The position numbers were made by a program, and so were the translations under genes. DNA of 64,000 nucleotides from Alphaproteobacteria bacterium UBA1185. GTDB taxonomy: Bacteria > Pseudomonadota > Alphaproteobacteria > Rs-D84. The DNA lies in the NCBI GenBank assembly GCA_002310415.1, contig DBYN01000004.1:64009-128008 (forward strand), in the 5' to 3' direction. Position 1 is the first letter of the stretch, and every line of letters starts with the position of its first letter. The notes beneath the pieces are model-generated. The model did no database searches. It saw only the letters and a program-made list of their open reading frames with translations, and was not told the origin of the DNA. This document shows positions 4,620 to 58,065 of the stretch, piece after piece.

Positions 4620-5355
4620 ACTCTCTCCTTTTTTTACCTGTAAGAGAATTATATCACACAAAGACAATAAAAAAAAGCAGATTATATAAATTTAATATGA
4701 TTACAGACATACCCAGATAAATAATCCGGTGAAAATAGGGGAATAAACACCCAAAAAACGCATAGAGAATACTGCAACCCCGCAGAAATCCTGGGTTTTT
4801 TGCATAAAAATATCAAAAAAACAGTAAAAAATTGGTAAAAATCACGATTTTTATAAAAATTGTAATATTTAATGTATTTAGTAAAAATATATAAACTGAA
4901 ATATGCCACAAAGAACAACAAATAAAAAAATGAAAAAAAATAAATAAAAGGGCGCATTTGTATAAAAAAATCCTTTTTATTAAAAAACGTAAAAAATTCA
5001 AAATTCGCATCAAATTAAAACAAGCAACCAAATCCATATACCACCAAAACCGCGAAAAACAGGCACAAATATCAACTATACACCGACGCTGATGACAAAC
5101 AAAAATCGCCCTAAGCCAGATAAATTCAGGCTTTAACACATAATCAACAAAGAAATGCGCAGTAGCAAATTATTTTGATAAAAACACACCAATCGATTCT
5201 CAGCGACCTGAGCATATAAATATATGATTTAAAACATTTATCTGGCTGAAAATTTGGGTCCCAAAAACGACCAATCTTTATAATCTCTGTATATTATGCA
5301 TAGTTTGGTATCGGGATCCCCGCGACCTAATACCAAATTGGTAAGATTTGATGTT

Positions 5356-5397
5356 TATATTATGTATAGTTTGCCGAGGCAAACTATACATAATATA
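5356..5397. repeat. Perfect 20-bp inverted repeat with 2-nt spacer (TATATTATGTATAGTTTGCC ga GGCAAACTATACATAATATA)
   Basis: Read directly from the sequence. A third, direct copy (17/19 identical) lies at 5290-5308. Confidence 0.9.
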
Positions 5398-8800: not shown

Positions 8801-9669
8801 TCAAACAAACTATCAGGAATCTTTCCGATAAAATTATACCCGCAACCACTAAATACACCTGCAAATCGTGGCTGTATCGCCATCAAAGCAGGTGAATTGG
8901 TGGCCAATCCTGTTGTATTACCCAATGTCGGAAATATTGCCCCCAACGAACCAGATATTTCCCTTACTCTGCTTATATAATCAAAAATATGCACAGATTT
9001 ATTTTCATTAACAGAAACAGGATCGTTTTTATCATCAAAATTAAAAACTATAGCGGAACTGCCATCTTGAGCGTACCCCGTCGCATTTCCACCAATACGC
9101 ACAGTAACATCTGTAGCGGACACGTGGTATGTGTGGGAATACACACTATAAAAATAATTCGAAGGCACCTTATTTATGTATTCTACATTGCCATCACCCC
9201 AATCAATCCAAAATTTACCACCCGCACTTAACGAAAAACCAAAATAATCCCCAGTATCTCCTTTTTCATTTATATTGCCAATATTTACTTGGAATTTGTC
9301 CTGTTCCCACATGGCAACGTATGTTGTATTGGTTGTGGGGTTATCTGGCATTGTCCAATGAACCAATGTTTTTGACGCGTTACCGTTCGTTATAGTCTCT
9401 AACCCAACCCTGTCTGTGGAACAAGTGTCTTGATTATTAACCTTGGAATAATGTTCGGAATCACACCAACCCGCAAATATATAATTGTCTTTAATCGGAT
9501 TTGCGGGAACAACCGCATTTTCTGATGTTTCTATTTGATACACAGGGTCGTTACTGCCCGGTAAATGCCCGCCATTTAAATTATACGTAATTGTAACACC
9601 AAATGATGATGTTGCCGACATTACAAACGCAACAATACCGAATAAATATAACTTTATATTATGAAACAT
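5890..9669 (-). CDS. Giant secreted cysteine-rich repeat surface protein, paralog A (1259 aa from ATG 9669)
   Basis: The start was set at MFHNIKLYLFGIVAFVMSATSSFG (signal-peptide-like), which matches the start of paralog B. The N-terminus has Listeria/Bacteroides-type repeat (Flg_new-like) segments (TITYNLNGGHLPG...NYIFAGWCD). The middle holds five tandem Cys-rich modules of about 100 aa. The C-terminal ~70 aa is shared with paralog B. Confidence 0.85.
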   Translation of the reverse strand: MFHNIKLYLFGIVAFVMSATSSFGVTITYNLNGGHLPGSNDPVYQIETSENAVVPANPIKDNYIFAGWCDSEHYSKVNNQDTCSTDRVGLETITNGNASKTLVHWTMPDNPTTNTTYVAMWEQDKFQVNIGNINEKGDTGDYFGFSLSAGGKFWIDWGDGNVEYINKVPSNYFYSVYSHTYHVSATDVTVRIGGNATGYAQDGSSAIVFNFDDKNDPVSVNENKSVHIFDYISRVREISGSLGAIFPTLGNTTGLATNSPALMAIQPRFAGVFSGCGYNFIGKIPDSLFDGIYGVPVEYMFADMFNGSYNVQGYIPPTLFINLDKQTTITNQFNDAFTHTSVATSCSWYQENGVPLSQYITGFEEYFDGHVSCAPVDSVICKAGESFSGTKCVACSGAGCLTQATTFKCNGMAANATHDECNVPVYNITYEIDGSVWTNGEPANFYIPGVGYSFYQIPSKPGYFFNGWYDEDNNWTYSINVSAQDSGDKTFYIRMGLLTIDCPAGQYAYGVPGMVSCAYCLDGYYCPGGSELSVENPGLYSCETGSHPACDCDDGYVYDYTASACILNPCSTGYVWDGSACACDENNYVCVNAGEYIVHYDDWEWADRAQCYSGHYCPGGAWLKSEVSDNAGLIPCDINTAAPDGSMSACIPCGENGYTDTTGATECSCNEGYGWSYKTNTCISATCPTGYMWDSKAGECVCDEDNYACCDVGEYAHYEPDGGKKGDKGDYYACWECEPGNYCEGGLWEISQLNGDTGMTSCGVDTFAPYEGMSACMSCPEHGHADAGADACVCDEGYGWSEADNMCLPANCPTGYVWYEKSGHCICDDDNYVCCYDGSYAYYENYDDGKGNAYTNYGCSKCDAGHYCPGGVWQKSEVEASGSVGQILCDMNTAEPWGESSTCVSCGEHGHTETTGATECICDEGYAWSFYRRQCVSTTCPTGYVWNSKEGCICDKDNYLCCDTGEYVEYGEKGDYYCSQCKPGHYCPGGAWVTSELNGLIGSTSCDINTVAPKSGMSACVSCGEHGHTDTAGATECICDEGYGWSYATNTCVSTTCPTGYVWASKEGECVCDKDNYVCAVAGEYIVHYDLSKDWVDRAQCYSGNYCPGGAWLKSEVSDNSGMIPCGMNTVAPDDGMDACIPCGNHGRTYITGAEWCVCDVKYEWDGEECLCLPGVVCGSDCLTKEVTIMGAPMCLVDFEHKTHKALSVKGSNGSVYYINLTQKEPLSEPTQLSSGHTLRIIAKSGVYEATDVIATSGE
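6140..7970 (-). repeat. Five tandem ~290-bp coding repeats (Cys-rich modules starting C[PS]TGY[VM]W)
   Basis: Protein modules recur with C-x-C-D-x-D-N-Y, GHYCPGG and CGEHGHTDT-GATEC-CDEGYGWS. The first and last modules also share DNA runs (compare 6281-6420 with 7741-7900). Confidence 0.85.
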
Positions 9670-9717
9670 ATTCTTCCCCTTTCCCAGAATTCTGCGGATT
9701 ATATTCACTTCATAAAC

Positions 9718-9746
9718 ATTATAGCAAAAAGGTACCTTTAATTCAA
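9718..9746 (-). promoter_or_regulatory. Candidate hybrid sigma70 promoter TTGAAT-17-TATAAT facing gene A
   Basis: The -10 TATAAT (rc of 9718-9723) lies in the fixed flank. The -35 TTGAAT (rc of 9741-9746) spans the IR/core junction, so it exists only in this core orientation. Confidence 0.4.
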
Positions 9747-9890
9747 CATATTTTTTTATACTTTTACATTTTTTAATGATTTTTGACATTAATTCTCTAA
9801 CTCCCGTGGATTTATTGAGATACAGCGATTTTTATCACTGATATTTTATTGACAATATTTTGTTTTGAACGTAAAAATTAAAGGTACGTT
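9729..9890. promoter_or_regulatory. Invertible DNA switch, copy A: 15-bp IRs (9729-9743, 9876-9890) flanking a 132-bp core (9744-9875)
   Basis: The core equals the reverse complement of 57767-57898 (126/132 identical), while both flanks are co-linear with the twin locus. The IRs are AAGGTACCTTTAATT and AATTAAAGGTACGTT (14/15). Confidence 0.8.
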
Positions 9891-10077
9891 AAAACTTTAT
9901 ACTGCCCGCTCAACCCCACAGATTTCCGGGAGTATTTCCAGACACCAATTCTCCCCTTTTTTTTGGGGGGAGTACAACACAGCCTGGAAGGAGGTAAAAA
10001 ATCCAAATACAAAATAAATTTCGTAAATTGGTATTAAAAAAACTATTGTACCAGACGTGCGGTTCGACAAACTGATA

Positions 10078-10110
10078 ATAAAAAAACACCACCCAATCAA
10101 GAGTGGTGTT
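10078..10110 (-). terminator. Terminator downstream of mscL
   Basis: AACACCAC...GTGGTGTT hairpin with an A run on the plus strand (a U run on the minus transcript). Confidence 0.7.
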
Positions 10111-10127
10111 TATCACTTGATTTACAA

Positions 10128-10679
10128 TTATATTTTATTCGCAACTTTTTTAGCAACCTTGGTCACCTTTAACACTTTACCCTTTAAAGTTTTTAAACCC
10201 TTTGCTAAATCTGTATCTTCTGCGGGCCCAATTTCTTCTGGTTTAACAGCAGAACAACAAAATGCGCATTTTGTCGCCAATTTACTTATAGTTTGTTTAC
10301 AATACGGACACGCACGTGTTGTAACTGGTGCTTTGCTGCGTGCAGAATTAACAATTTTTACAAAGATAAATATCGCAACCATTGTTATCAAGAAACTGAT
10401 TACCGCATTCAAAAACGTTCCTATGTTCAAAGTAGTTGCACCCGCAGCCTGAGCCGCCACCATAGTATTATAATGAACACCTGGTTCACCGCCACCCAAC
10501 ACATAGAACCACTGTGAAAAATCAACATTACCAACCAACAACCCGACTGGTGGCATAATAACATCTTTAACCAAAGAATTAACAACACTGGTCATCACAG
10601 ACCCAACGATAATACCCACAGCCATATCAATTGCACTGCCTTTGTTAATAAATGCTTTAAAGTCTTTAATGATTTTCAT
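10128..10679 (-). CDS. mscL: Large-conductance mechanosensitive channel MscL with C-terminal CxxC..CxxCC extension
   Basis: The N-terminus MKIIKDFKAFINKGSAIDMAVGIIVGSVMTSVVNSLVKDVIMPPVG is typical of MscL. The extra C-terminal part contains CPYCKQTISKLATKCAFCC. Confidence 0.9.
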   Translation of the reverse strand: MKIIKDFKAFINKGSAIDMAVGIIVGSVMTSVVNSLVKDVIMPPVGLLVGNVDFSQWFYVLGGGEPGVHYNTMVAAQAAGATTLNIGTFLNAVISFLITMVAIFIFVKIVNSARSKAPVTTRACPYCKQTISKLATKCAFCCSAVKPEEIGPAEDTDLAKGLKTLKGKVLKVTKVAKKVANKI

Positions 10680-11239
10680 TATTTTTCTCCTTGTTTATTT
10701 ATGTGTTTTTCTATTGCATCCAAAACTTTGTTCAAAGTCCGATGGATATTTTCATCTTTGGTTTCAACCATAACATCCGCCAAAGCATAAACATCATAGC
10801 GTTCTTTTATCAATTGAGCCAAAATTTGACGACTGTCTGTATTCAATAACTGTGGTCTGGTATGGCGAAAATTTGTTCTTTTTACCAACAGTTCCAAATC
10901 AGCCTTTAACCAAATCGTTAATGATTTCTTTAAAACAATATCACGAACAGTGTCAGTTATAAATGCACCCTCACCCGTAGAAATAACCTTTACCAACGGC
11001 GGTGTTTCCAATAATCTTTCAATAACTTTTTCTTCTACACGACGGAACTCTTTTTCGCCATACATCGCAAAAATATCAACAACACTGCAACCCGCCGCTT
11101 TTTCAATTTCTTTGTCAGAATCAACAAACGGGATACCCAAACGTCGTGCCAAAGCACGCCCCACACTGGTCTTACCCGCGCCCATCAAACCAACCATTAC
11201 AATTGGTTTATTTAATTCTGTCTGTGTTTTAATTCTCAT
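10679..11239 (-). CDS. aroK: Shikimate kinase
   Basis: P-loop GLMGAGKTSVGRALARRLGIPFVDSD. The track start at 11287 is a TTG that gives a hydrophobic extension. ATG 11239 (MRIKTQ...) is preferred and ATG 11257 is also possible; neither has a clear SD. Confidence 0.8.
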   Translation of the reverse strand: MRIKTQTELNKPIVMVGLMGAGKTSVGRALARRLGIPFVDSDKEIEKAAGCSVVDIFAMYGEKEFRRVEEKVIERLLETPPLVKVISTGEGAFITDTVRDIVLKKSLTIWLKADLELLVKRTNFRHTRPQLLNTDSRQILAQLIKERYDVYALADVMVETKDENIHRTLNKVLDAIEKHINKQGEK

Positions 11240-11283
11240 GATTTTATATTTTATCATAAATATTAAAACAGACAATAAAAAAT

Positions 11284-12348
11284 TCAATCCAACGCCGCCA
11301 ATCTTTCCAATTGATCAGCCGAAATCAGCGCATCTATCATTTCGTCCAGACCTTCGCCACCCGCCAAAATATCGTCCAATTTATACAAAGTCAATTTAAT
11401 ACGATGATCTGTTACACGTTGTTCTGGAAAATTATAAGTTCTGATTTTTTCACTTCTGTCACCAGAACCAACCATACTGCGACGCGATGCATTTGATGCA
11501 TTCATTTGTTCACTGCGTTGCTTTTCATATAAACGTGAACGTAACACAGCCATCGCAGTTGCTTTGTTTTGTAATTGCGAACGTTCATTTTGACACGTTA
11601 CAACTATACCCGTTGGAAAATGAGTAATACGAATCGCAGAATCTGTTTTATTAACGTGTTGACCACCTGCCCCAGATGCACGGAAAATATCTATACGAAT
11701 ATCTTTGTCATCAATCACAACATCAATATCTTTTGCCTCTGGCATAACAGCGACAGATGCAGCAGATGTATGAATACGACCAGCCGCTTCTGTTTCAGGC
11801 ACGCGTTGCACACGATGAATACCAGATTCAAATTTTAATCTGGCATACACACCAATCCCATCAACTTTGAAAATGATTTCTTTGTATCCGCGCAACGAAG
11901 TTGCATTTTCTTCGATGATTTCAATTTTCCATCCATGACGAAGAGCATAAGATTGATACTGTCTGAATAAATCACCAGCAAACAAAGCCGATTCTTCCCC
12001 ACCGACACCTGCACGAATTTCTACAATCGCACTGTTATCATCTGCACTATCACGTGGCAACAAAGCAATCTGCAAATCGCGCTCTAAATCCGGCAAAGCA
12101 TGTTTTAATTCGTTTAATTGTTCTTCGGCTATACCCTTTAATTCAGGGTCAGAAAGCATTTCATTTGCGTCTTTGATTCCCTGCTCTGTTTGCAGATATT
12201 TATCTATTAATGGTAATACTTCGGATAATTGCGAATATTCTTTGGATAATCGTGTCAATTCATCACCAGATATTTCACCAGAATTCATTTTTGATTCAAT
12301 GTCTTTGGCACGCGATTTTATGTCCAATAATTTATCTTTGATAATCAT
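11284..12348 (-). CDS. prfA: Peptide chain release factor 1
   Basis: GGQ motif ([19 protein letters not shown]) and a PxT-type tripeptide ([15 protein letters not shown]) indicate RF1. The stop is TGA at 11284-11286. Confidence 0.95.
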
Positions 12349-12349
12349 A

Positions 12350-13642
12350 TTATTTCACCTTTATCTTTTGAACAACCGCATCAATCGCGACAGATTCTTG
12401 AAGCCCAGATTCCATATTTTTCAAAGACACTATTTTGTTTGCTACTTCATCATCGCCAATGATAATGCTGTTTTTTGCACCGATTTTATTGGCGTATTCA
12501 ATTTGATTTTTGAATTTTTTATCAGTATCCAAATACGGCACAGCAACAATTCCACTTTCACGCAATTTTGCAACCAGTTCCATAGCATACGAAACATTTT
12601 GTTGCCCCATAACCAAGACAGCGACATCAACAATATTTTCAAATCTTGATAAATCGATTTTGTTGTCTTCCATTAAACCAACCAGCATTTTGGAATAACC
12701 AACACCAGAACCAACACCAACGATTTTGGTCTTAGAAAATTTAGAAGCCAAGTTTTCATAACGACCACCACCACCAACCGCGCCCATTTCTGGAAAATCT
12801 TTCAAAAAGAATTCAAACACTATGCCGGTATAATAAGAATGTCCACGCATTATTGAAACATCTATTACAGCATCCTTTACACCCATTGTTTTTAATATTT
12901 CCATTAAATCGTCCATTTCTTTGACAGATTCAGACAATTTAGCAGATTTATCAGCAAATGATTTATATCCCGATGCAAAAACATCTTCAATTATATTTGC
13001 ATTTTGTTCACCAACAATTTCAATCAAAGCATCATTAAAATCTGCAAGTTTATCGCGTTTATCAATTAAAACGAATGCTTCACGACTTTGTTTATCGTCC
13101 AATTTCAGATATTCAAACATTGCATTCCAGAATTTACGGTTACTAATTCTGACTTCTGTTTTACCAATAAATTCAGATATGGAATCGTAAGCCATCATCA
13201 AAGTCGCGATAATTTCCGCTTCATAATTTGTTGACAATGAATTTATACCCATTATATCTAAATCCATCTGATAAAATTCACGATAGCGACCACGTTGGGT
13301 ACGTTCACCACGATACCGTTTTGAAAACTGTGCAGCACGAAACGGAAACACCAAATCGTTCAAATGACCAGCAACATAACGCGACAGACCAACTGTTCCG
13401 TCATAACGTAATCCCATTTTTGTATCACCTTTTTGAAACAAATACATCTGGGTTTCTATTTCAGCCCAATTATCTTTATCACTTAATACCTCTGCCCGTT
13501 CAATTGCTGGCAAATCCAACACAGAAAAACCCGCAATACGCAAAACAGCCAACATGCGTTGCGCACAATAATCAAAACAACGTTGTTGCACGGGTAACAA
13601 TTCTATAAATCCGGTCAAAGGTTTTGTTGGTTTCAAATCCAT
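12350..13642 (-). CDS. hisS: Histidyl-tRNA synthetase
   Basis: Class II motifs ([20 protein letters not shown]). The track start at 13651 is a GTG inside the SD. ATG at 13642 is preceded by AAAGGTGA. Confidence 0.93.
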
Positions 13643-13854: not shown

Positions 13855-15015
13855 TTACCATCTTAAACCGACGCGGAATTCATCGCCCCAATCAGCAATC
13901 TTTTGACCACCGACCGAACAATTCAACGCATCAAATCCTTTTTCAACCTGTGCCTTTTTAATCAAGACACCAGAAACCACACCACCAACTGTTCCCAACA
14001 CAACACCAGCGGTCAAATCAGATGCCAAACGAACACCATTAAATGAACCATCTGCATTTTTCCAAACACTGCGGTCTGAATCAATTTTTTTGAAAAATTC
14101 AGACACCCTGTTATAAGCCCCAGAAACATTAGCATCGTTACCATCACCATTACCCGCGGTTGAACCACCAGATTGATTACGCCACGTTGCATCACTATCA
14201 CCAGCCGAACCACTGAAACCATTATTATCTTTGACTTCAACTTTAACACCTGATGATTCTGTTCCACACATTTCATCTATCTTATCTTTGTATTGTTCCA
14301 ACCCAAGTTTTACAATTTCTTCTTTTGAAACATCTTTATCTTTAACTTGTATACTAACATTTTGCAATATTTCTGTTTTGGTATCAGAACATGTAACAAT
14401 TATACTTCCACGCCAATAACAGTTACCTTCCGTACATTTGTCTGGTTCTTTCTTGGGTTCTTCTTTTTTATCACAGTGACATGCAGCATATGCCTTACCC
14501 CCAATTAGTTTTACAACACCTTGGCTTTTGCGCAACATGCCATTTGCTTTGCTCGAATCAATGACATAAGGCACACATTTATCACCATCGCTTATTTTAC
14601 AAGTATCATCACATGCATTTGTACATATATTTTCTGCTTCTTGTTTGGTATGACAATAGCCACTAATAAGAGCGTTTTGCTGTTTTTGTGCGTCGTCCTT
14701 ATTATGAAATACCAACGGCATTAACTTACCCGCTTCACAACTTTGTGCAGCACAACGTAAACTTCCATTTTTAAATTGTACACATTTACCGTTTGTACCC
14801 GATTCAGGCGTACAATTGTCACCCACCTTTCCACAATTCGACTTAAAATCTTTCTCTTTAAATTCTGGCAAAGCGCATACATCATCCGTCATATACCCAG
14901 TCAAAGCATAAGACAAAGCCTTTGAACCAAACGTAGTCGTTATTCCCCATGCGGACTTTGATACAAAACCACCACAGACAAGCATAACTGATAAAGCAGA
15001 TACAAATTTTTTCAT
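13855..15015 (-). CDS. Secreted Cys-rich hypothetical protein with C-terminal hydrophobic segment
   Basis: Signal-like N-terminus MKKFVSALSVMLVCGGFVSKSAWG, many Cys residues, and a Gly/Val-rich hydrophobic stretch (AGVVLGTVGGVVSGVLI) near the C-terminus. An SD (GGAAAGGAAG) lies upstream. Confidence 0.6.
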   Translation of the reverse strand: MKKFVSALSVMLVCGGFVSKSAWGITTTFGSKALSYALTGYMTDDVCALPEFKEKDFKSNCGKVGDNCTPESGTNGKCVQFKNGSLRCAAQSCEAGKLMPLVFHNKDDAQKQQNALISGYCHTKQEAENICTNACDDTCKISDGDKCVPYVIDSSKANGMLRKSQGVVKLIGGKAYAACHCDKKEEPKKEPDKCTEGNCYWRGSIIVTCSDTKTEILQNVSIQVKDKDVSKEEIVKLGLEQYKDKIDEMCGTESSGVKVEVKDNNGFSGSAGDSDATWRNQSGGSTAGNGDGNDANVSGAYNRVSEFFKKIDSDRSVWKNADGSFNGVRLASDLTAGVVLGTVGGVVSGVLIKKAQVEKGFDALNCSVGGQKIADWGDEFRVGLRW

Positions 15016-31364: not shown

Positions 31365-31479
31365 AAAAAATTATAGATATTTAAAAAATGCCCGTCGCAC
31401 ATGACGGCATTTTTTGTAATAATTTTTGGCTCAAGTGTAAATAATGTATCTTTTTGAAATAAAAAATAAAACAGCAAAA

Positions 31480-31509
31480 GAAAAACCCTGAAATTAATCA
31501 GGGTTTTTA
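31480..31509. terminator. Terminator downstream of ankyrin gene 31517..32179
   Basis: ACCCTGA-aattaa-TCAGGGT flanked by A/T runs. It has the same stem family as the one at 27124. Confidence 0.75.
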
Positions 31510-31516
31510 TGTTTGA

Positions 31517-32179
31517 TTATTTGTGTCTTAATCTACGAAGCCTCAAATTTCTCATACGTTGTTTTTCTTTCTTTTTGGCTTGAAAATTGTTATATGCTAT
31601 TTGTGCAGTTAGTTCGTCTATCTTTTGTTTTAGATTGGCATTTTCTTGTTCTGATTTTGCCAAATTGGCTTTCAATGCGGTAAATGGTGCTTCTTTCAAC
31701 AATTCGATTACTTCTTTTGGGGCTCCGCTAAATAAAGCAATCGTCAATGGTGTACGACCATCTTTGGCTTTTGCGTTTACATCGGCGCCTTTATCAATTA
31801 ATAATTCAATTACTTCTTTTGAGGCTTCGTTAGCACAAGCAAACATCAATGGTGTCCAACCATAATTGTTTTTTGCGTTTACATTGGCATCTTTAGCAAT
31901 TAATAATTCAATTACTTCTTTTGAGGCTTTGTTAGCACAAGCAAACATCAATGGTGTCCGACCACCATTGGCTTTTGCGTTTACTTTGGCACCTTTAGCA
32001 ATTAATAATTCGATTACTTCTTTTCGTGCTTCGTGATATAAAGCAAACACCAATGGTGTCCAACCATCATTGTCTGTTGCGTTTACATCGGCACCATCCT
32101 GGATGGCTTGGTTTATTTCTGATATTGAACCCTTTCTAATGGCAGTCAATAAATAACGTTCTTTAACTGTCCATACCAT
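31517..32179 (-). CDS. Ankyrin-repeat protein with coiled-coil and basic tail
   Basis: Near-identical 33-aa ANK units (KEVIELLIAKGAKVNAKANGGRTPLMFACAN...). The C-terminus has a coiled coil and ends in RMRNLRLRRLRHK. Confidence 0.85.
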   Translation of the reverse strand: MVWTVKERYLLTAIRKGSISEINQAIQDGADVNATDNDGWTPLVFALYHEARKEVIELLIAKGAKVNAKANGGRTPLMFACANKASKEVIELLIAKDANVNAKNNYGWTPLMFACANEASKEVIELLIDKGADVNAKAKDGRTPLTIALFSGAPKEVIELLKEAPFTALKANLAKSEQENANLKQKIDELTAQIAYNNFQAKKKEKQRMRNLRLRRLRHK

Positions 32180-32302
32180 TTTTTATCCTTTTTGTTGTTT
32201 GTCAAGGCTAATATAATACACAAAATATAATTAGTCAACTGTCTGTTATAGAAAAACCAAGATTATCAAAAAGATACATTATTTACACTTGAGCCTAATT
32301 TT

Positions 32303-34373: not shown

Positions 34374-35090
34374 TTAATATATAATCTGCTTCTTCTTTGA
34401 TAACAAATCAATTAACACATCATTTTTTTTGTGTGTATGTACAATTAAGTTATTATTCAACAAATCCGCGCAATTAAACGGCATATCCCGGTAATTATAA
34501 TCTGTATCCTCAAAGAAAAAATTATATTGTTCTATAATGATAGATGTTAGAATTTTATCAGGGCTTAACGAAGAATTTTTTTCGATTTTATAATCTGCAT
34601 CAACAAAACATAAAACATTGCTCAATGTATATACAATATCACTGCTTCTATTTTCCCCTAAAAAACTAAGACTTTCAGACAATGTTTTTACAGATGTAAA
34701 ATCTACAAACGGAAACAAATAGAACGAGTTCGGTCCCACCATACTCCCGGTTGGATGTATATCTAGTATAATTTTTTGCCAACTATCTTTTAATTTATTT
34801 CTATCGAACGGTCTGCTGTTTCCTTCTTGGTCCTCGATCACGTATCGTACATCTTCCATAATTTTTATCGGACGCATATCTCGAAATTTATTGTTTTTGC
34901 ATATTATGTCAGGAACAGATACTAAATTATACCTTCCACGGTCTATATACTCCTTATATTTTTCCTCAAAAGAGTAACTCCTACCAAAGTCCCATTTATT
35001 TAAGCCTGCCTTACCAAACTTCTTAGCAGATACTGCTGTTAATATCAATTTTCCAACATACTGTGTTTTTTCGAGTTTATAATATTCCAT
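34374..35090 (-). CDS. Hypothetical protein, 238 aa
   Basis: ATG preceded by AAAGGGGG. No family recognised. Confidence 0.55.
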   Translation of the reverse strand: MEYYKLEKTQYVGKLILTAVSAKKFGKAGLNKWDFGRSYSFEEKYKEYIDRGRYNLVSVPDIICKNNKFRDMRPIKIMEDVRYVIEDQEGNSRPFDRNKLKDSWQKIILDIHPTGSMVGPNSFYLFPFVDFTSVKTLSESLSFLGENRSSDIVYTLSNVLCFVDADYKIEKNSSLSPDKILTSIIIEQYNFFFEDTDYNYRDMPFNCADLLNNNLIVHTHKKNDVLIDLLSKKKQIIY

Positions 35091-35125
35091 TTTTACCCCC
35101 TTTTAGTAATATATTCACCAAGTTT

Positions 35126-35872
35126 TTATAAAATCACTTGCCCACCAATATTTGCATTACGCGGTATTGGGCCAAAAGAAGATTGTTTACTGACATAAAT
35201 ATTACCTTTGACAGAAAACTGACCACAGAAACTTAATTTATCCACATTACGAATAAACAAATTTCCACGAATCTTTGCATCACATGGCAAAGTATATTTA
35301 CGCATATTTTGTATAAACAAATTACCGTCAATCTTTACACCATTTGATAACACTGGCGAAGATGGGTATAAATCTACGATAACATCACCAGTCAAATTTT
35401 GTTTTGGTAAAACTTTTGACGGCAAAGAAATCTGTTTGACAACCACAGGCTTTTTAACACCAATTGTTTTTATTTGTGGTTTTATACCTGTTTTTATGCT
35501 TGCTTTTAAAGGCAATGCTAAATTTGGTTTGATTTTACGTTGATTGATTTTGCGATTATCAACATTGTTCATTTTATGAGCAACAATAACTGCATTATTT
35601 TTTCTTGCATCATTAATTTGATTGTGATTTATCACATTCAAAATCAACCCCGCAAACAAAACAATTATTGCCACTAGCAAAGTCAAATTGACTATACCAA
35701 CAATATCAATACTTTTAACCCAGTTCCAAATTTTTTTACATACACGTACAATAAAACGCCAAACGCTTTTGCACAAATTCCATGGAAACAACAGTATTTT
35801 CTTTAACCACTGTTTCATAGTACGAGAACGAGTATTACGCGTTGCACTTTTTAATTTTTTCGATTTATTCAT
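35126..35872 (-). CDS. Membrane-anchored hypothetical protein with beta-helix-like C-terminal repeats
   Basis: Basic N-terminus and one TM segment (IVGIVNLTLLVAIIVLFAGLILNVI). The C-terminus has repeated x-[IV]-x-G-N-[LI]-[FY]-[IV] units (KIDGNLFIQN, KIRGNLFIRN, SVKGNIYVS). Confidence 0.55.
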   Translation of the reverse strand: MNKSKKLKSATRNTRSRTMKQWLKKILLFPWNLCKSVWRFIVRVCKKIWNWVKSIDIVGIVNLTLLVAIIVLFAGLILNVINHNQINDARKNNAVIVAHKMNNVDNRKINQRKIKPNLALPLKASIKTGIKPQIKTIGVKKPVVVKQISLPSKVLPKQNLTGDVIVDLYPSSPVLSNGVKIDGNLFIQNMRKYTLPCDAKIRGNLFIRNVDKLSFCGQFSVKGNIYVSKQSSFGPIPRNANIGGQVIL

Positions 35873-35874
35873 AT

Positions 35875-36288
35875 TTAATCCTTTTGGTTTTGTAAAATTT
35901 TGAAAATACCATTGGTAACTTCACGTAACATATTCGTTGCCATGTTATAGTAATTATCAGCATCATCTTTATACTTTGTTATGCTACGTTTATCCATACT
36001 TACACACGTACAACCTGAACTACTTTTAATAAATTTTGTAAATACACCCGTTGAAGCATCAAATATATACGCTTCACCCGAATCAATATCATCACGATAA
36101 AAACGTATTTCTATCGGAACAACAGTTTTGAATGATATAAGTCCATCTTCTGGCCATGTATAACGGGCAGACATACCATTTTTCATCATGACATTAACAT
36201 CATCAGATACCAAAGAAAAAACACTAATCTCGCGCAGTTCTTTTTCTATCCGAAACATTTTGTTATCCGCTTTTAACAAAAATTCCAT
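35875..36288 (-). CDS. Hypothetical protein (137 aa)
   Basis: ATG at 36288 (MEFLLKADNK...) lies 8 nt after AAGGAG. Its stop abuts the next gene's start. Confidence 0.55.
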   Translation of the reverse strand: MEFLLKADNKMFRIEKELREISVFSLVSDDVNVMMKNGMSARYTWPEDGLISFKTVVPIEIRFYRDDIDSGEAYIFDASTGVFTKFIKSSSGCTCVSMDKRSITKYKDDADNYYNMATNMLREVTNGIFKILQNQKD

Positions 36289-36398
36289 ATAATTACTCCT
36301 TGTTTTACGCAATATTATAGACACACAAAATCATTTGTCAAGATATTTTTGACATTTTTTTAATACGCCAATACACAACACTCTGTTCCTTAAAAAAC

Positions 36399-36427
36399 TT
36401 GACAATTGCGTTATTTTGTGTTATAAT
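36399..36427 (+). promoter_or_regulatory. Consensus sigma70 promoter TTGACA-17-TATAAT
   Basis: Perfect hexamers at 36399-36404 and 36422-36427, 28 nt upstream of the 36455 ATG. Confidence 0.7.
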
Positions 36428-36454
36428 AAGTGATGATGACAAAAGGACAATAAA

Positions 36455-38101
36455 ATGACAAATTCTTTTCCAGACGAATGGATAACATTAAACGATGTCG
36501 TATTGCTTATTGCATACAACGAAGTGTTAAGAACCAAAATTATGGATACCTTAATAGATTTACACAGCAAAGGCCAACATCCTGATTGGATAAAACAAAC
36601 TCATGTCAACAGATACAAATTTAACAAAAAATATCTGGAAGCCTTTTGTAAAGAATATGGTTTTGATTTGGCGGCACCAATAAAAAGACACGCTGTCGAT
36701 TATAAAAGCAAAAATTGGTTGTGCACCAAAGAATTAAGACAATATCTTCCAGGGTCAGAAAGTCAAATTCTGACAATATTACAGAAACTGCAATCACAAA
36801 TGCCTGATGCTATCAAAGAAAAACAAAATGGTCCTGTTGTACGTTTGTGCCTGCACAAAAAGTATATCGATACCGTAAAATCTATTATAAACAAAGAAAC
36901 AGCCAAACAAATCCAAAACGTAGACACCAATACAATATACGCAAATTGTTTTATGGAAAAAACCGGTCCAGACGAATGGATTAGTTTAACATATGTCAGA
37001 AATTTGATTTTAAACGGTCTTGAAGAACGCGACAGATTACATGATTCTTTGATGGCTTTGTATAACACGCAACAATACCCAAATTGGATACAGCGCGCAA
37101 CCAAAAAGCAATACATGTTCAACAAAAAGTATTTACCAGAATTCTGCATGATGTATTCATTTGAAATAAAAGATACACCTGATAGTAATATAAAATGGTT
37201 AAGAATTGTAGATTTACAACATTTAATAAGTAAATCTTGTCAAGATTTCTCCAAAACTCTAACCGCCGCACTACAAGACCTGCATAGCAGACACATATTT
37301 TCTAACTGGGTATGTCGCCCAAGCGAAAGCAGATATTATTTAAACGAAAAATATTTGATACCTTTTACAAAAATGTACAACTTTCGTTTAATTTGTCAGG
37401 ACACCAGAACCGAAGAATGGTTATCTGCCGCCGAAATATGGCAACAAACAAAATGTATAGAATTTAATAAAATCAGCCGATTATTAAAAAAACACCAATC
37501 CGATATGCCCGAATGGATACAAACAAAAAGAAAAAAACAATTACCTTGTCTGTGTTTACATCGCGACCATGTTTCAGAATTTTGCAAAATTGCCGGTATA
37601 CAATTATGCAAAGATACAAACGCAAAAACATCTGAGTGGTTTGCAACATCTGAATACAGATTATTTCTAAAAGATTTTGACGCAAATACACAAACGAACG
37701 CACTGGAAACAGCATTTACAAACATCGCAAAAACACATCCAGATTGGATTCAATATAAAACATGCAAAAACGGTCAAGAAAGATTATGTCTACACAAAAA
37801 TCACGTTGCTGATTTTTGTACCGAAACTGGTTTTATATGCAACAACAAGAAAACGGAACAATGGTTGGATGTTCGCGAACTTGGTTTAATGACACACATA
37901 TCACCTGCTAAAATATTGGTCACATTACAAAACAACCAAAAAGCAAACCCAGAAATTATCCAAATCAGACGTCTTAGTTCAAGACCTGTTTTATGTCTGC
38001 ACCGCGACCATGTCACCAAAATAACAGAATGGATGCAAAATTTAGATAAAAAAAGTATTGCTATGATAATTGTAAAAGACAGCGGATACAAATTGAAATA
38101 A
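36455..38101 (+). CDS. Orphan protein built of seven ~65-80-aa repeats
   Basis: Each unit has an [ED]-W-[ILF] motif near its start and P-[DNE]-[WAI]-I-[KQ] near its end (PDWIKQ, PDAIKE, PNWIQR, SNWVCR, PEWIQT, PDWIQY, PEIIQI). Two tail subtypes alternate: [KE]KYL..F (FNKKYL, LNEKYL) or LCLH+xH. Confidence 0.7.
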   Translation: MTNSFPDEWITLNDVVLLIAYNEVLRTKIMDTLIDLHSKGQHPDWIKQTHVNRYKFNKKYLEAFCKEYGFDLAAPIKRHAVDYKSKNWLCTKELRQYLPGSESQILTILQKLQSQMPDAIKEKQNGPVVRLCLHKKYIDTVKSIINKETAKQIQNVDTNTIYANCFMEKTGPDEWISLTYVRNLILNGLEERDRLHDSLMALYNTQQYPNWIQRATKKQYMFNKKYLPEFCMMYSFEIKDTPDSNIKWLRIVDLQHLISKSCQDFSKTLTAALQDLHSRHIFSNWVCRPSESRYYLNEKYLIPFTKMYNFRLICQDTRTEEWLSAAEIWQQTKCIEFNKISRLLKKHQSDMPEWIQTKRKKQLPCLCLHRDHVSEFCKIAGIQLCKDTNAKTSEWFATSEYRLFLKDFDANTQTNALETAFTNIAKTHPDWIQYKTCKNGQERLCLHKNHVADFCTETGFICNNKKTEQWLDVRELGLMTHISPAKILVTLQNNQKANPEIIQIRRLSSRPVLCLHRDHVTKITEWMQNLDKKSIAMIIVKDSGYKLK

Positions 38102-38123
38102 CAGTCAAACACACAAAATACAT

Positions 38124-38151
38124 TTGACAACTATTGACTTTGTGTTAGAAT
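38124..38151 (+). promoter_or_regulatory. Candidate promoter TTGACA-16-(TGT)TAGAAT
   Basis: Hexamers with an extended -10 TG were read directly, 38 nt upstream of the 38189 ATG. Confidence 0.55.
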
Positions 38152-38188
38152 AATCGCCACACAAAGATATTATACAAAGGACAAAACA

Positions 38189-38764
38189 ATGAAACTTTAC
38201 ACAACTGTTACATACAGGGTATCGTACCAAAATATTTTCGACAACCTAGAACACATTATTTCCGATGATTTAACATTAGATTCAGCAAAACATTCTTTTG
38301 CAGTGGTACCAAGCCCCGCCAATAAAGTAACAGTTACACGCATCGTAAATCTGTACGAAGATATAAAAGATGATTGGAAACAAATTACTGCAACACCAAC
38401 AGATAATTTCAGTTTCTATGTCAGCGATAAATTACCGACACTGGAAAATATCACAAATGCTTTAAACAAAGAATCCGACGGTTTTATTGGCTGGCAATAT
38501 ATTGATTTACCCGAACAATCCAAGAAAGTAGTTGTATCAACCGTACTTGTTTCTGAATACAATTGGAGCAGTTGGAACGGATACACACACAAAGCAGACG
38601 TACTTGTCAGAAAACTAAATAAAAATGATGTTGTTATAAACACCAAAGGACACGAAATTTGGCCACAAAAAACCGGAAACATTCCGTCCGAACTGGCAAG
38701 ATTATTTAAAAAGAATTCTGAACCATTGGAATTCATAAAAAATAATAATGTAAAAATCAAATAA
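38189..38764 (+). CDS. Hypothetical protein, 191 aa
   Basis: ATG with AAAGGA upstream and a terminator hairpin downstream. Confidence 0.55.
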   Translation: MKLYTTVTYRVSYQNIFDNLEHIISDDLTLDSAKHSFAVVPSPANKVTVTRIVNLYEDIKDDWKQITATPTDNFSFYVSDKLPTLENITNALNKESDGFIGWQYIDLPEQSKKVVVSTVLVSEYNWSSWNGYTHKADVLVRKLNKNDVVINTKGHEIWPQKTGNIPSELARLFKKNSEPLEFIKNNNVKIK

Positions 38765-54790: not shown

Positions 54791-57691
54791 TTATTCACCT
54801 GATGATATTACGTCTGTGGCTTCGTATACACCACTTTTGGCGATAATACGTAATGTATGCCCACTGGATAACTGGGTTGGTTCGGATGGATTCGCAGCCG
54901 TCAAATTGATATAATATACATTGCCATTTGAACCTTTTACTGATAATGCTTTTTGTGTTTTATGCCCAAAATCTATCAAACACATCGGCGCACTTAACAC
55001 AGACACTTCTACTGTTTTACACGCACACACTTCAACTGATTGTAATGTACCAAATGCCTGTGAACCAGTAATTGTTTCTGCATCTATTTGTGATATTAAT
55101 GAAGATATGTCTTGCCCAAAATAATCGTCCCAATAATTATCATCTGGGTTAGAATATGGATTTTCCGCCGAAGAATCTATACATTTTGCTTTTAATTCTG
55201 CAGAAAACACACCCGCATATGCTGATACTACATCATTACGGTTGGTAAAAAACGGCAACGACACATCCAACAAATCCCCATGATTACGCACATTCACCAA
55301 TGTGGAACAATCCGTATATCTTTTACCCGCTGCATTATAAGTATCCGCATTATAACGACACGTCATATAAGAAATTCCAGCAGTATCATAATCACAAGCC
55401 GGAAATTGACTTAACATTGCTTCTACTTCTTCGTCTTCACAACTCATATCAAACACCATTGGTGCCAATTCTGGCTCTTCTGCACATATCGCTCTGATCA
55501 TGCAAACCTCAAAAAGCATATAAGTTTCTTCAGTAAGAGTAAATTGCGTAGAAATGCATTCATCAAGACTTTGGGCGCCATCACCATTTAAATCAAACCA
55601 TGCACGTTCTAAACCCATTAAACCATCAATATATTTATTAGCCGGACAATCAAATTCCCATTTTGCCCAATATTCTTCATTTGCCCCAGAATCTATTGTT
55701 ACATCATACGAACAATCTGTTAATTCTGCATCTGTACACCAACCAACAAAATTATATCCATCTTTGGTTGGTTGTTTCAAATTAATCGGCAGATTTTCGT
55801 CGGTATATTTTGACGGATTGTCTTGAGTATTCACCCCACCATTCAAATGATATGTAATAGTATAAGCCCTGATACATTCGGTTGAATTCGAATTACCTGC
55901 GTAATCATCCGGACACTTGTATATGGCACCGAATGTTGGGCATGTTTCGACAGATTTATCACACGCCACACACTTCTTGGCACCGGTATCATATTTAAAT
56001 TCTTTTCTACAATACAAATAATCAGAATCAACACACGAAACATGATTATCATAATCATCGTTAAACACATCTTCAAACCCAGTAATTGCCTGATGCGTCC
56101 CAGACGGGCAAGATTCTATGAATTCGGTGCCAAAAAACACATTATACATATGATTAGATGCTGGCTCACCCGTTTCAGCGTTTATATTATCAATACCCGC
56201 AAACAATGTTGGTGGAATGTAATGATTTCGTCCCAAATTCCAACACCAACCAAAAGTATAACCAAAAGGACTCCAAGAATTATAATCAGTGCTAAGTGCA
56301 CCCGATATACCACTGAACAAATTTGCTGGTACCGGACCAATCAAATGATCACAACTTGCAAAAGTATTCGCAAACATACTGGATGCCGGTTGCCCTTTTA
56401 TACCGCTGAATAAACTTCCTGGTATTGTTCCGTTTAAATTGTCGCAACCTTCAAATGTGCTTTGAAACATTCCTTTTGCCGGCTGTCCTTCTATACCACT
56501 AAACAATGTTGGTGGTATTGCATAATATACAGTATCATTTTCTGTTGAATTTGTCTCATCCACTATATCTGTATGGGTTAAATTTCTACAATCTTCAAAT
56601 GTACCAGAAAACATACTATCCGCCGGTTGTCCTTCTATACCACTGAACAAGCTTCCTGGTATCGGACCAGTTAAATTTCTACAATTATGAAATGTAGCCT
56701 CAAACATTTGCGATGCCGGTTGACCATCTATGCCACTGAATAAACTTCCTGGTATTGTACCAGTTAAATTTTCACAATTATAAAATGTCGAGTAAAACAT
56801 ATAAGCGGATATTTGACCAGACACACCACTAAACAACGTTGGCGGAATCGCATAATTCATACCAGGATTATTTGGGTCCGGAATATCTGTCCCAATTAAA
56901 TTGGTACAATTAGCAAAAGTACTACCAAACATATGTTTTACTGGTGTACCACTAAATATCTGTCCCAAAGAACCATATATTTTACGAACTTTCGCACGAA
57001 CAACCGATGCACTCGCCGTTGAAACATCGGATGTATTTGCTGGCGTTCCAGACCAATAATGACCACCAAAACTAATTACCGGTTCTGGAAATTCAGCGGA
57101 TGTGTTATATGCGGTTGCCTGCCCCCCCAATCGTATCATATATGATGTTGAAGAACCTGTATATTTATGTGCATAGGTCTGAGTAGATGTTGTATTTAAA
57201 TTGGCCGTTAACCGCTCAATATCACCATCGCCCCAATCAATCCAAAATTCACCTGCGGCACCGATTTGAAATCCAAAATAATCATTATTATTATCATTTG
57301 CGACAATATTTATGATGTCCATTTTGAATTTATCTTGTTCCCACATAGCAATATACGTTGTATTACTGGTCAAATTATTCGGTATAGTCCATCTTACCAG
57401 TGTTTTTGAACCTGTTGTTTCCAACCCAACACGATTGGTTGAACAGGTATCTTGTCCATTAACACTCGCATAATGTGCCGAATCACACCATCCGGTAAAT
57501 ATATAATTGTCTTTAATCGGATTTGCGGGAACAACCGCATTTTCTGATGTTTCTATTTGATACACCGAATCATTATTACCTGGTAAATGTCCACCATTTA
57601 AATTATACGTAATTGTAACACCAAATGATGACGTTATTGATGTCATAAATACAAAAATACTGAATAAATATAACTTTATATTATGAAACAT
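54791..57691 (-). CDS. Giant secreted repeat surface protein, paralog B (966 aa)
   Basis: About 165 N-terminal aa and about 70 C-terminal aa are close to paralog A, including exact DNA runs of 69 nt and 65 nt. The middle differs: ~34-aa LRR-like units and a second Flg_new-like segment (YTITYHLNGGVNTQ...GYNFVGWCTD). Confidence 0.85.
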   Translation of the reverse strand: MFHNIKLYLFSIFVFMTSITSSFGVTITYNLNGGHLPGNNDSVYQIETSENAVVPANPIKDNYIFTGWCDSAHYASVNGQDTCSTNRVGLETTGSKTLVRWTIPNNLTSNTTYIAMWEQDKFKMDIINIVANDNNNDYFGFQIGAAGEFWIDWGDGDIERLTANLNTTSTQTYAHKYTGSSTSYMIRLGGQATAYNTSAEFPEPVISFGGHYWSGTPANTSDVSTASASVVRAKVRKIYGSLGQIFSGTPVKHMFGSTFANCTNLIGTDIPDPNNPGMNYAIPPTLFSGVSGQISAYMFYSTFYNCENLTGTIPGSLFSGIDGQPASQMFEATFHNCRNLTGPIPGSLFSGIEGQPADSMFSGTFEDCRNLTHTDIVDETNSTENDTVYYAIPPTLFSGIEGQPAKGMFQSTFEGCDNLNGTIPGSLFSGIKGQPASSMFANTFASCDHLIGPVPANLFSGISGALSTDYNSWSPFGYTFGWCWNLGRNHYIPPTLFAGIDNINAETGEPASNHMYNVFFGTEFIESCPSGTHQAITGFEDVFNDDYDNHVSCVDSDYLYCRKEFKYDTGAKKCVACDKSVETCPTFGAIYKCPDDYAGNSNSTECIRAYTITYHLNGGVNTQDNPSKYTDENLPINLKQPTKDGYNFVGWCTDAELTDCSYDVTIDSGANEEYWAKWEFDCPANKYIDGLMGLERAWFDLNGDGAQSLDECISTQFTLTEETYMLFEVCMIRAICAEEPELAPMVFDMSCEDEEVEAMLSQFPACDYDTAGISYMTCRYNADTYNAAGKRYTDCSTLVNVRNHGDLLDVSLPFFTNRNDVVSAYAGVFSAELKAKCIDSSAENPYSNPDDNYWDDYFGQDISSLISQIDAETITGSQAFGTLQSVEVCACKTVEVSVLSAPMCLIDFGHKTQKALSVKGSNGNVYYINLTAANPSEPTQLSSGHTLRIIAKSGVYEATDVISSGE
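56170..56990 (-). repeat. About seven tandem ~34-aa coding repeats (IPGSLFSGI-GQPA--MF--TF--C-NLTG)
   Basis: The repeated peptide pattern was read from the translation. It resembles BspA/DUF285-type leucine-rich repeats. Confidence 0.7.
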
Positions 57692-57751
57692 ATTCTTCCC
57701 CTTTCCTAAGAATTCTGCGGATTATATTCACTTCATAAACATTAAAGCAAA

Positions 57752-57913
57752 AAGGTACCTTTAATTTTTACGTTCAAAACAAAAAATCGTCAATAAAATA
57801 TCAGCGATAAAAATCGCTGTATCTCAATAAATCCGCGGGATTTAGAGAATTAATGTCAAAAATCATTAAAAAATATAAAAGTATAAAAAAATATGTTGAA
57901 TTAAAGGTACCTT
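57752..57913. promoter_or_regulatory. Invertible DNA switch, copy B: perfect 15-bp IRs (57752-57766, 57899-57913) flanking a 132-bp core (57767-57898)
   Basis: The core is the reverse complement of 9744-9875 (126/132), and the flanks are co-linear with copy A. The core contains hairpin CAGCGAT-AAAA-ATCGCTG and palindrome AAATCC-GCG-GGATTT. Confidence 0.8.
57765..57793 (-). promoter_or_regulatory. Candidate core-borne promoter TTGACG-17-TAAAAA facing gene B
   Basis: The -35 is the rc of 57788-57793 and the -10 is the rc of 57765-57770. The same element (TTGACA, 9849-9877) points away from gene A at copy A. The -10 is weak because it lacks the final T. Confidence 0.35.
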
Positions 57914-58065
57914 AAAACTTTATACTGCCCACCAAACCACGCTGATTTCCGGGATTATTCCAGACACCAATTCTCCCCTTTGGGGGAGTACGGCGCAGCC
58001 GGGAGGGAGGTTGTTCTCCCCCAAAAGGGAGGGGTACGAGTAGTACAAACAAGAACAGAAAAAAC

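Follow-up and report, generated by a model that had tools for sequence, protein, structure and literature searches.

Per-gene invertible promoters are described for the mpl (P35) lipoprotein family of Mycoplasma penetrans, in the part of PMC2268961 that takes up the work of Horino et al. 2003. This genome-reduced, host-associated bacterium has dispersed paralogous surface-protein genes, up to 38 in number, each with its own short invertible element, and the recombinases are not encoded inside the element. The element is reportedly ∼135 bp long, with inverted repeats of ∼12 bp. Invertible promoters of the polysaccharide loci of Bacteroides fragilis are flipped by Mpi (Coyne et al. 2003, as cited in passages of PMC2268961, PMC11602134 and PMC11868660). 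A single recombinase acts there in trans on many dispersed promoter segments of ∼170–230 bp, which have in common a repeat motif with a palindromic centre. This motif is said to be ARACGTWCGT. The Escherichia coli fimS segment, the substrate of FimB and FimE, is a short invertible segment directly upstream of a surface-structure gene, and recombinases encoded elsewhere can flip it. It is a single locus of 314 bp with 9-bp repeats, adjacent recombinase genes and the whole promoter inside the element. Hin/Gin/Cin segments are bounded by hix/gix sites, which are imperfect palindromes of 26 bp, and the invertase gene lies within the segment or adjoins it. Invertons are widespread: PhaseFinder recovered 4,686 of them in 54,875 genomes (PMC11868660), and surveys with PhaseFinder, PhaVa and DeepInverton have yielded thousands of elements (Jiang et al. 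2019; PMC11602134; PMC11868660).

The window (the whole 64-kb stretch of DNA analysed here) has a G+C content of 36.5%, and its host is, to judge from its protein sequences, an alphaproteobacterium of the rumen with a reduced genome, a relative of Candidatus Enterousia. The nearest relatives of its RmuC, the gene of which adjoins the switch copy of main concern here, have at most 94% amino-acid identity and come from rumen and gut Alphaproteobacteria MAGs, many of them named Candidatus Enterousia; contigs with proteins identical to those of the window come from bovine and other ruminant metagenomes. The Candidatus Enterousia group is part of the uncultured order Rs-D84 and has genomes of ∼0.75–1.0 Mb, without respiration and without most biosynthesis; together with its relatives it is abundant, uncultured and genome-reduced in gut and rumen, and its lifestyle is unknown (PMC12306168). 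The flip-flop switch is a well-known device and its mechanism is not new; it has not been reported before in this bacterial group, and the literature yielded no report of phase variation or invertons for Candidatus Enterousia or order Rs-D84.

Two switch copies, A and B, lie upstream of two paralogous genes for secreted proteins. Their anatomy is that of an inverton: an intergenic segment with a pair of inverted repeats, matching at 15/15 positions in copy B and 14/15 in copy A. Inverted repeats, intergenic position, a promoter and a place upstream of surface genes are all features of the surveyed invertons, although the surveys rest on reads or isolate genomes. The dispersed paralogous genes with a short element each, the recombinase outside the element and the genome-reduced, host-associated bearer all recall M. 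penetrans mpl. In contrast with mpl, the host is one of the Alphaproteobacteria and not of the Mollicutes, the cargo consists of secreted Flg_new-repeat proteins and not lipoproteins, the repeat sequence is unrelated, two to three loci are involved, and inversion is known from sequence alone. Control of scattered promoters in trans would likewise bring Mpi to mind, but the promoters here are sigma-70-like and not of the Bacteroides −7/−33 type, the cargo is protein genes and not capsule operons, and the switch copies are paralogues that arose by duplication, not independent promoters. Against the Mpi motif in the form given above, the best register of the repeat matches at 8/10 positions (AAAGGTACCT or TAACGTACCT). 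Whereas fimS contains its whole promoter, the best promoter here is split, with its −35 in the element and its −10 in the flank. As for the Hin/Gin/Cin type, the segment has 132 nt, is non-coding and has no resolvase-domain ORF nearby. The element is best read as a real inversion-type element of the invertible-promoter class, with a layout closest to that of M. penetrans mpl.

Two repeat-bounded segments and their genes

The features of the two loci are as follows.

54791–57691, minus strand: gene B, 966 aa, secreted, with Listeria-Bacteroides (Flg_new) repeats.
57692–57751, minus strand: fixed 5′ leader of gene B, 95% identical to the copy A leader; it holds a −10-like TGcTTTAAT (57749–57741, without A at −11), a second fixed TATAAT (57726–57721) and the ribosome-binding site AGGGGA.
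57752–57766: gene-proximal inverted repeat of copy B, AAGGTACCTTTAATT, from sequence reading and pattern search.
57764–57793, minus strand: promoter-like site at the core end of copy B, TTGACG-17-TAAAAA (57793–57765) or, at 18-nt spacing, AAAAAT; it faces gene B.
57767–57898: putative invertible core of copy B, 132 nt, reverse-complemented relative to the copy A core.
57876–57901, plus strand: the other conserved core end of copy B, an A/T-rich stretch and the −35-like TTGAAT (57896–57901).
57899–57913: far-side inverted repeat of copy B, AATTAAAGGTACCTT, the exact reverse complement (15/15 match).
57914–58017: far flank of copy B, common to copy A (78% identical, direct), including a GC-rich REP-like hairpin element.
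5890–9669, minus strand: gene A, 1259 aa, a secreted protein with Flg_new repeats and Cys-rich repeats, paralogue of gene B.
9729–9890: copy A switch, with repeats at 9729–9743 and 9876–9890 (14/15 match) and core at 9744–9875, in the orientation opposite to copy B.

Genes A and B both start with a signal peptide followed by a Listeria-Bacteroides repeat (Flg_new, PF09479). Their first ∼120 aa and last ∼80 aa are common and their middles wholly different; conserved ends around a variable middle are, by sequence, the mark of a family of variable surface or secreted proteins. Secreted repeat proteins of this build are the usual cargo of phase variation. A third relative, from another strain, is a mosaic of genes A and B. 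In strain L001, the gene adjoining RmuC (7300–10386) has an N-terminal region ∼97% identical to that of gene A, a gene B-like middle, and LysS instead of PolA as its downstream neighbour; read from these alignments, it shows mosaic exchange and rearrangement among paralogues between strains. Exact-protein look-ups with genes A and B, with three alternative starts, returned no record, and a homologue search with the N-terminal 161 aa returned nothing. A look-up with PolA led to contigs whose breaks fall within gene B, at its conserved 3′ end. Full-length homologue searches brought one further switch-bearing contig, L092, and other relatives (L090, L091, L093 and L094) without the switch. As a separate point on gene A, an ATG inside the copy A core (9789) opens, in the assembled orientation, a 40-codon in-frame extension (9670–9789, minus strand), and the mechanical ORF call is 1299 aa; the extension is probably spurious, since its position is upstream of where transcription is predicted to start and the signal peptide would become internal.

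The copy B segment spans 162 bases (57752–57913), with perfect inverted repeats around the 132-nt core, and both sequence reading and pattern search agree with the preliminary description on the 15/15 pair. That description had also assigned the same repeat sequence to copy A. The 15-mer AAGGTACCTTTAATT is indeed identical at 9729–9743, and its partner at 9876–9890 (AACGTACC...; minus strand AACGTACCTTTAATT) has one mismatch. Every further match to the 15-mer in a pattern search across the 64-kb window has three mismatches. First-order Markov simulations give an expectation of ∼0.15 perfect 15-nt inverted repeats with a gap of ≤200 nt per 64-kb window, so that the repeat by itself is only mildly unusual and the comparison of the two loci is decisive. 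Aligned directly, copies A and B are 82% identical in the N-terminal coding region, 95% in the 60-nt leader or gene-side flank, and 78% in the far flank (∼105 nt past the second repeat). The 132-nt cores are 54% identical when aligned directly and 94.7–95.5% after one is reverse-complemented, and direct homology breaks off exactly at the repeats and resumes at the second repeat. Direct flanks, a core that reaches 95% only when inverted, and breakpoints at the repeats together show, at the level of sequence comparison, that the segment was inverted exactly at its repeats at least once since the loci duplicated. The proposal that copy B is a second inversion-type switch in the opposite orientation is thereby supported. 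Short-read misassembly is an unlikely source of the pattern, because a 15-nt repeat is far below the k-mers used in assembly and because each type of junction recurs in independently assembled contigs: that of copy A in L007, and that of copy B in L001, L002 and L092. Many contigs stop within or beside the switch, which a two-copy repeat would produce regardless. The divergent tails of L007 and L009, considered as alternative switch junctions, were rejected as chimeric joins to window positions 12902–12964 and 14452–14506.

The switch occurs in three contexts: (i) downstream of MscL (copy A of the window; L007, L008 and L009), (ii) downstream of RmuC (copy B of the window; L001 and L002), and (iii) downstream of 23S-5S rRNA (L092). 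The third of these, after the 5S rRNA gene of a related strain, bears out the earlier suggestion of a multi-locus system. At every locus one block moves as a unit, consisting of the far flank, the switch, the leader or 5′ UTR and the N-terminal coding region. Taken by themselves, the 10 outermost base pairs of each repeat, AAGGTACCTT, make a perfect palindrome, which would suit a crossover site bound by a dimer and can also be read as a target-site duplication. On the latter reading, the element would be MITE-like and non-autonomous, inserted independently and in either orientation into the palindromic target AAGGTACCTT, which is duplicated on insertion and, being palindromic, makes a direct repeat that also reads as inverted; the repeats are equally well described as a direct target duplication of 10 bp, with the element between its two halves ending in 5-bp terminal repeats, TAATT/AATTA. 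However, every copy sits at the same position in the same duplicated block of far flank, element, leader and gene. All five full-length copies (5/5) precede the Flg_new gene family, and in L002 and L009, which are truncated contigs, the junction with the far flank is the same. Neither a solo copy nor an empty site was seen in the window, in ∼1.5 Mb of related genomes or in public collections, dispersed copies were absent from other Enterousia loci, and there was no plasmid or phage match. Without solo copies and empty sites, insertion of such an element is a very improbable origin of the pattern. Copy B is instead probably one of a family of per-gene invertible switches upstream of genes for variable secreted Flg_new-repeat proteins.

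Searches outside the window bear on how far this family extends. The repeat pair has zero matches in 185,579 species-representative genomes or viral contigs, the leader and core-end patterns have zero matches in JGI metagenomes, and 80 RmuC loci of related MAGs (∼1.3 Mb) contain neither core nor repeat. Plasmid and phage collections hold no similarity to the switch, and neither the switch nor its flanks match an Rfam RNA family. By the zero matches in public collections, the switch is confined to one poorly sampled species-level lineage. Within that lineage, the cores of copies A and B are 95.5% identical, while copy B and L001, both at the RmuC locus, have 88.6% identity, and the partial core of L002 (RmuC locus) is 100% identical to the core of L092 (rRNA locus). 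Since copies within a genome are closer than copies at the same locus across strains, the sequences indicate concerted evolution or ongoing exchange between copies.

Conserved core ends and candidate promoters

Core length is exactly 132 nt in 5/5 recovered cores, and the perfect repeat and this length are retained in four distinct copies that differ by 5–15% in sequence. The repeats, together with ∼38 nt inside one core end and ∼47 nt inside the other, are nearly invariant; substitutions cluster in the central ∼45 nt. By their sequence, the extents of the invariant ends fit promoter elements, and both ends face outward. The block bearing TTGACG is conserved in all copies. Two palindromes in the variable centre, the hairpin CAGCGAT-AAAA-ATCGCTG (57802–57819) and AAATCC-GCG-GGATTT (57829–57843), are present in copy B as first described, where they had been put forward as sites for accessory proteins. 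They are intact in copy B only and are broken, with no compensatory changes, in copy A, L001 and L002/L092. Their place in the most variable part of the core and their lack of conservation make a role as accessory sites unlikely, and the proposal is rejected. A terminator function was separately considered for the hairpin at 57802–57819: on the gene-sense strand of copy B it resembles a terminator, but it is unconserved and without compensatory changes, and the idea was dismissed.

Canonical sigma-70-type sites, defined as at least 10/12 matches plus a good −10, reach 2.8 times the density of coding DNA in the intergenic DNA of the window (6 kb), and 11/13 of them are placed upstream of a gene and correctly oriented to it. 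This enrichment and orientation make sigma-70-type sites informative in this organism. In a simple promoter scan of the A/T-rich switch regions, site counts were not above chance. Candidate sites were scored with a rough position matrix based on E. coli frequencies, with the following results.

Reference promoters upstream of window genes: 9/10 score 10.3–16.0 bits; the site upstream of rpsB scores 7.8.
Copy A hybrid promoter, 9718–9746, minus strand, facing gene A: TTGAAT-17-TGcTATAAT, 12.0 bits.
Copy A fixed leader site: TTGCTA-18-TATAAT, 9.2 bits.
Copy A core-borne site, facing away from gene A: TTGACA-18-AAAAAT, 8.6 bits.
Copy B core-borne site, facing gene B: TTGACG-18-AAAAAT, 8.1 bits, below most good window promoters.
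Copy B fixed leader site: TTGCTT-18-TATAAT, 7.9 bits.
Copy B hybrid with the core flipped: TTGAAT-17-TGcTTTAAT, 6.2 bits.

There are in all three overlapping candidate promoters, among them the orientation-independent fixed TTGCTW-18-TATAAT. The hybrid of copy A draws its −35, TTGAAT, from the edge of core and repeat and its extended −10, TGcTATAAT, from the fixed flank; its 12.0 bits fall, on the E. coli-based matrix, within the range of gene-upstream promoters in the window. In copy B, TTGAAT faces the far flank, where TTTATA offers no usable −10 partner. TTGACG-17-TAAAAA on the minus strand (57793–57765) and the replacement of TATAAT by TTTAAT as fixed −10, both named in the preliminary description, check out. 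The low score of the flipped hybrid of copy B comes from TTTAAT, in which the A at position −11, a critical base, is missing. TTTAAT is also the fixed −10 of L001 and L092 and hence that of 3/4 distinct copies, so that copy A may be the only one with the hybrid promoter.

If copy B is one of a family of per-gene switches, each would consist of a 132-bp core between 15-bp inverted repeats, placed 60 bp upstream of a paralogous gene. One core end would supply the A/T-rich stretch and the −35 TTGAAT, which needs a −10 in the fixed flank, and the other a complete, weaker TTGAC(G/A)-18-AAAAAT site. With promoter parts at both core ends, flipping would change which promoter faces the gene. As assembled, gene A is probably ON, driven by the near-consensus hybrid promoter, and gene B is probably low or OFF. 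Gene B is predicted to be weakly expressed either way, with 8.1 and 7.9 bits as assembled and 6.2 and 7.9 bits flipped, against 12.0 for gene A. Given the defective fixed −10 (TTTAAT), flipping alone may not fully activate gene B, and the single-base difference in this −10 is predicted to matter as much as orientation. The idea of alternate expression of the two genes, raised at the outset, finds no firm support: the two loci do have opposite orientations, but orientation is constant at each locus in every assembly available and gene B scores weakly in both.

The same promoter parts could also act as a toggle in which both orientations express the gene from different promoters, hybrid or core-borne, so that inversion alters strength or regulation and the outward promoter transcribes the far flank. 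Both core ends are conserved to promoter-like extents and face outward, and the core-borne site scores 8.1–8.6 bits in both copies, as such a toggle would have it. Yet the far flank is the least conserved part (78%), has no Rfam family and consists partly of a dispersed REP-like element, and the core-borne −10 (AAAAAT or TAAAAA) is unlike that of good window promoters; a toggle of this kind is quite improbable.

Search for a recombinase and possible activity of the switch

Some 50 ORFs of the window were scanned against profiles of Pfam, NCBIfam and PHROGs, and none has an integrase, resolvase, large serine recombinase or transposase domain. Among the hypothetical ORFs, ten were compared with NCBIfam and ten with PHROGs (seven with both), with no recombinase-like match; the remaining genes are recognisable housekeeping genes, such as LeuS, UvrA, PolA, Def, Fmt, TruA, ComEC and MscL. 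The earlier statement that the 64 kb hold no recombinase is therefore correct. Precomputed Pfam annotations show no recombinase within ∼6 kb either side of the switch in L001, and the 4.2-kb contig L092 has no other called gene. Given its absence from the window, it is natural to suppose that the enzyme acts in trans: a site-specific recombinase encoded outside the window would bind the repeats and flip the core. The suggestion that a single recombinase serves both loci holds in so far as the repeats are identical and one enzyme could act on them. However, the shared repeat is not independent evidence of a master invertase, because the whole unit is a duplicated block and the repeats are common by descent, which is not evidence of an independent regulon.

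Both orientations of the segment exist, but at different, paralogous loci whose flanks are direct. At the RmuC locus, three strains (window, L001 and L002) show the orientation of copy B. For the MscL locus, represented by two haplotypes, the orientation is that of copy A in the window, L007 and, with a variant repeat, L009. No locus occurs in both orientations in any assembly, where assemblies report the majority state and only ∼3 independent strains represent each locus. These observations would also follow from a fossil inversion, that is, one flip by template switching or illegitimate recombination at short repeats after the duplication, now fixed, with no dedicated recombinase and no ongoing phase variation. 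Besides the constant orientation per locus in every assembly, the scans that found no recombinase agree with a single ancient event, and so does copy A, with its one repeat mismatch and better −10, as if locked. Nevertheless, the perfect 15-bp repeats, the 132-nt length and both ends have been kept while the core centres differ by 11–15%, and such conservation would hardly be expected if the inversion machinery were not under selection. Moreover, with majority orientations only and ∼3 independent strains per locus, the numbers are too small to decide against switching. A fossil inversion is a real rival, though a rather unlikely one; perfect repeats, fixed length and ends conserved across diverged strains are sequence features in favour of an active system.

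Independently of the switch, an Enterousia-like sister species gives a hint of phase variability. Two homologous genes of this species from a single sample, P0002 and P0004, have (CA)13 (L091 6278–6303) and (CA)12 (L093 2759–2782) directly after a start codon; with (CA)12 the frame continues into the signal peptide, and with (CA)13 it runs into a stop. Such a CA tract suggests, by its form, slipped-strand phase variation in the same protein family. Just upstream of the CA tracts lies a motif, CCGCAGAA(T/A)TCT, common to the leader of the window.

An active family of per-gene switches may be extended to a wider picture. A Rs-D84 bacterium with a genome of <1 Mb would run switches in the style of M. 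penetrans at three or more loci, with two outward promoters whose identity is swapped by inversion; the enzyme would be distant, possibly a housekeeping Xer-type one, and identical sites would drive core exchange and large rearrangements between loci. Taken as a whole, this picture is unlikely. If true, the identical sites at several loci would explain the differing gene neighbourhoods of related strains. A small genome here devotes DNA to large variable secreted proteins, subject to inversion in one lineage and apparently to a dinucleotide repeat in a sister lineage. The two modes of control point to strong, fluctuating surface selection, possibly by phage, protists, host immunity or a partner cell. 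The orientation ratio at the three loci provides a handle for tracking surface selection in metagenomes, and AAGGTACCTTTAATT adds a clean, sequence-defined candidate recombination site. For an obscure gut lineage with a reduced genome, the switch offers a useful way into its biology.

Other repeats and loci

Both switches have the REP-like GC-rich element (TTCTCCCCTTGGGGGGAGTACGG...CGGGAGGGAGGT) in their far flank (57969–58031 and 9950–9995). The element is also dispersed in related genomes, with examples at L028 10936–11021, L038 12089–12363 and L094 1960–2060. It is intergenic in several related species, sometimes tandem, and often upstream of Flg_new genes. In L038, which belongs to another species, an element of ∼430 nt (11020–11470) lies directly downstream of RmuC; its terminal inverted repeats are ∼90 nt long by eye, with a 59-nt stretch confirmed as perfect, and are followed by tandem repeats with the REP-like element. 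It could be a MITE or another invertible segment.

Within the window, a 33-nt inverted repeat (32/33 complementary; 31425–31457 and 32266–32298) brackets a complete ankyrin-repeat gene (31517–32179, minus strand), along with a promoter-like TTGACT-17-TATATT (32238–32210) and a terminator (31476–31513). Its layout suggests either a cassette with terminal repeats at its ends or a second invertible segment of larger size. The intergenic DNA downstream of gene A holds a perfect 20-nt palindrome with a 2-nt spacer (TATATTATGTATAGTTTGCC/GGCAAACTATACATAATATA) and, 70 nt away, a third copy that is 95% identical; together they occupy 5288–5307 and 5356–5397. Five consecutive ORFs at 34374–38764 (238, 248, 149, 548 and 191 aa) have no significant match in Pfam, NCBIfam or PHROGs, the one NCBIfam match being at chance level (E = 0.035). 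One of the five is preceded by a perfect consensus promoter, TTGACA-17-TGnTATAAT (36399–36427).
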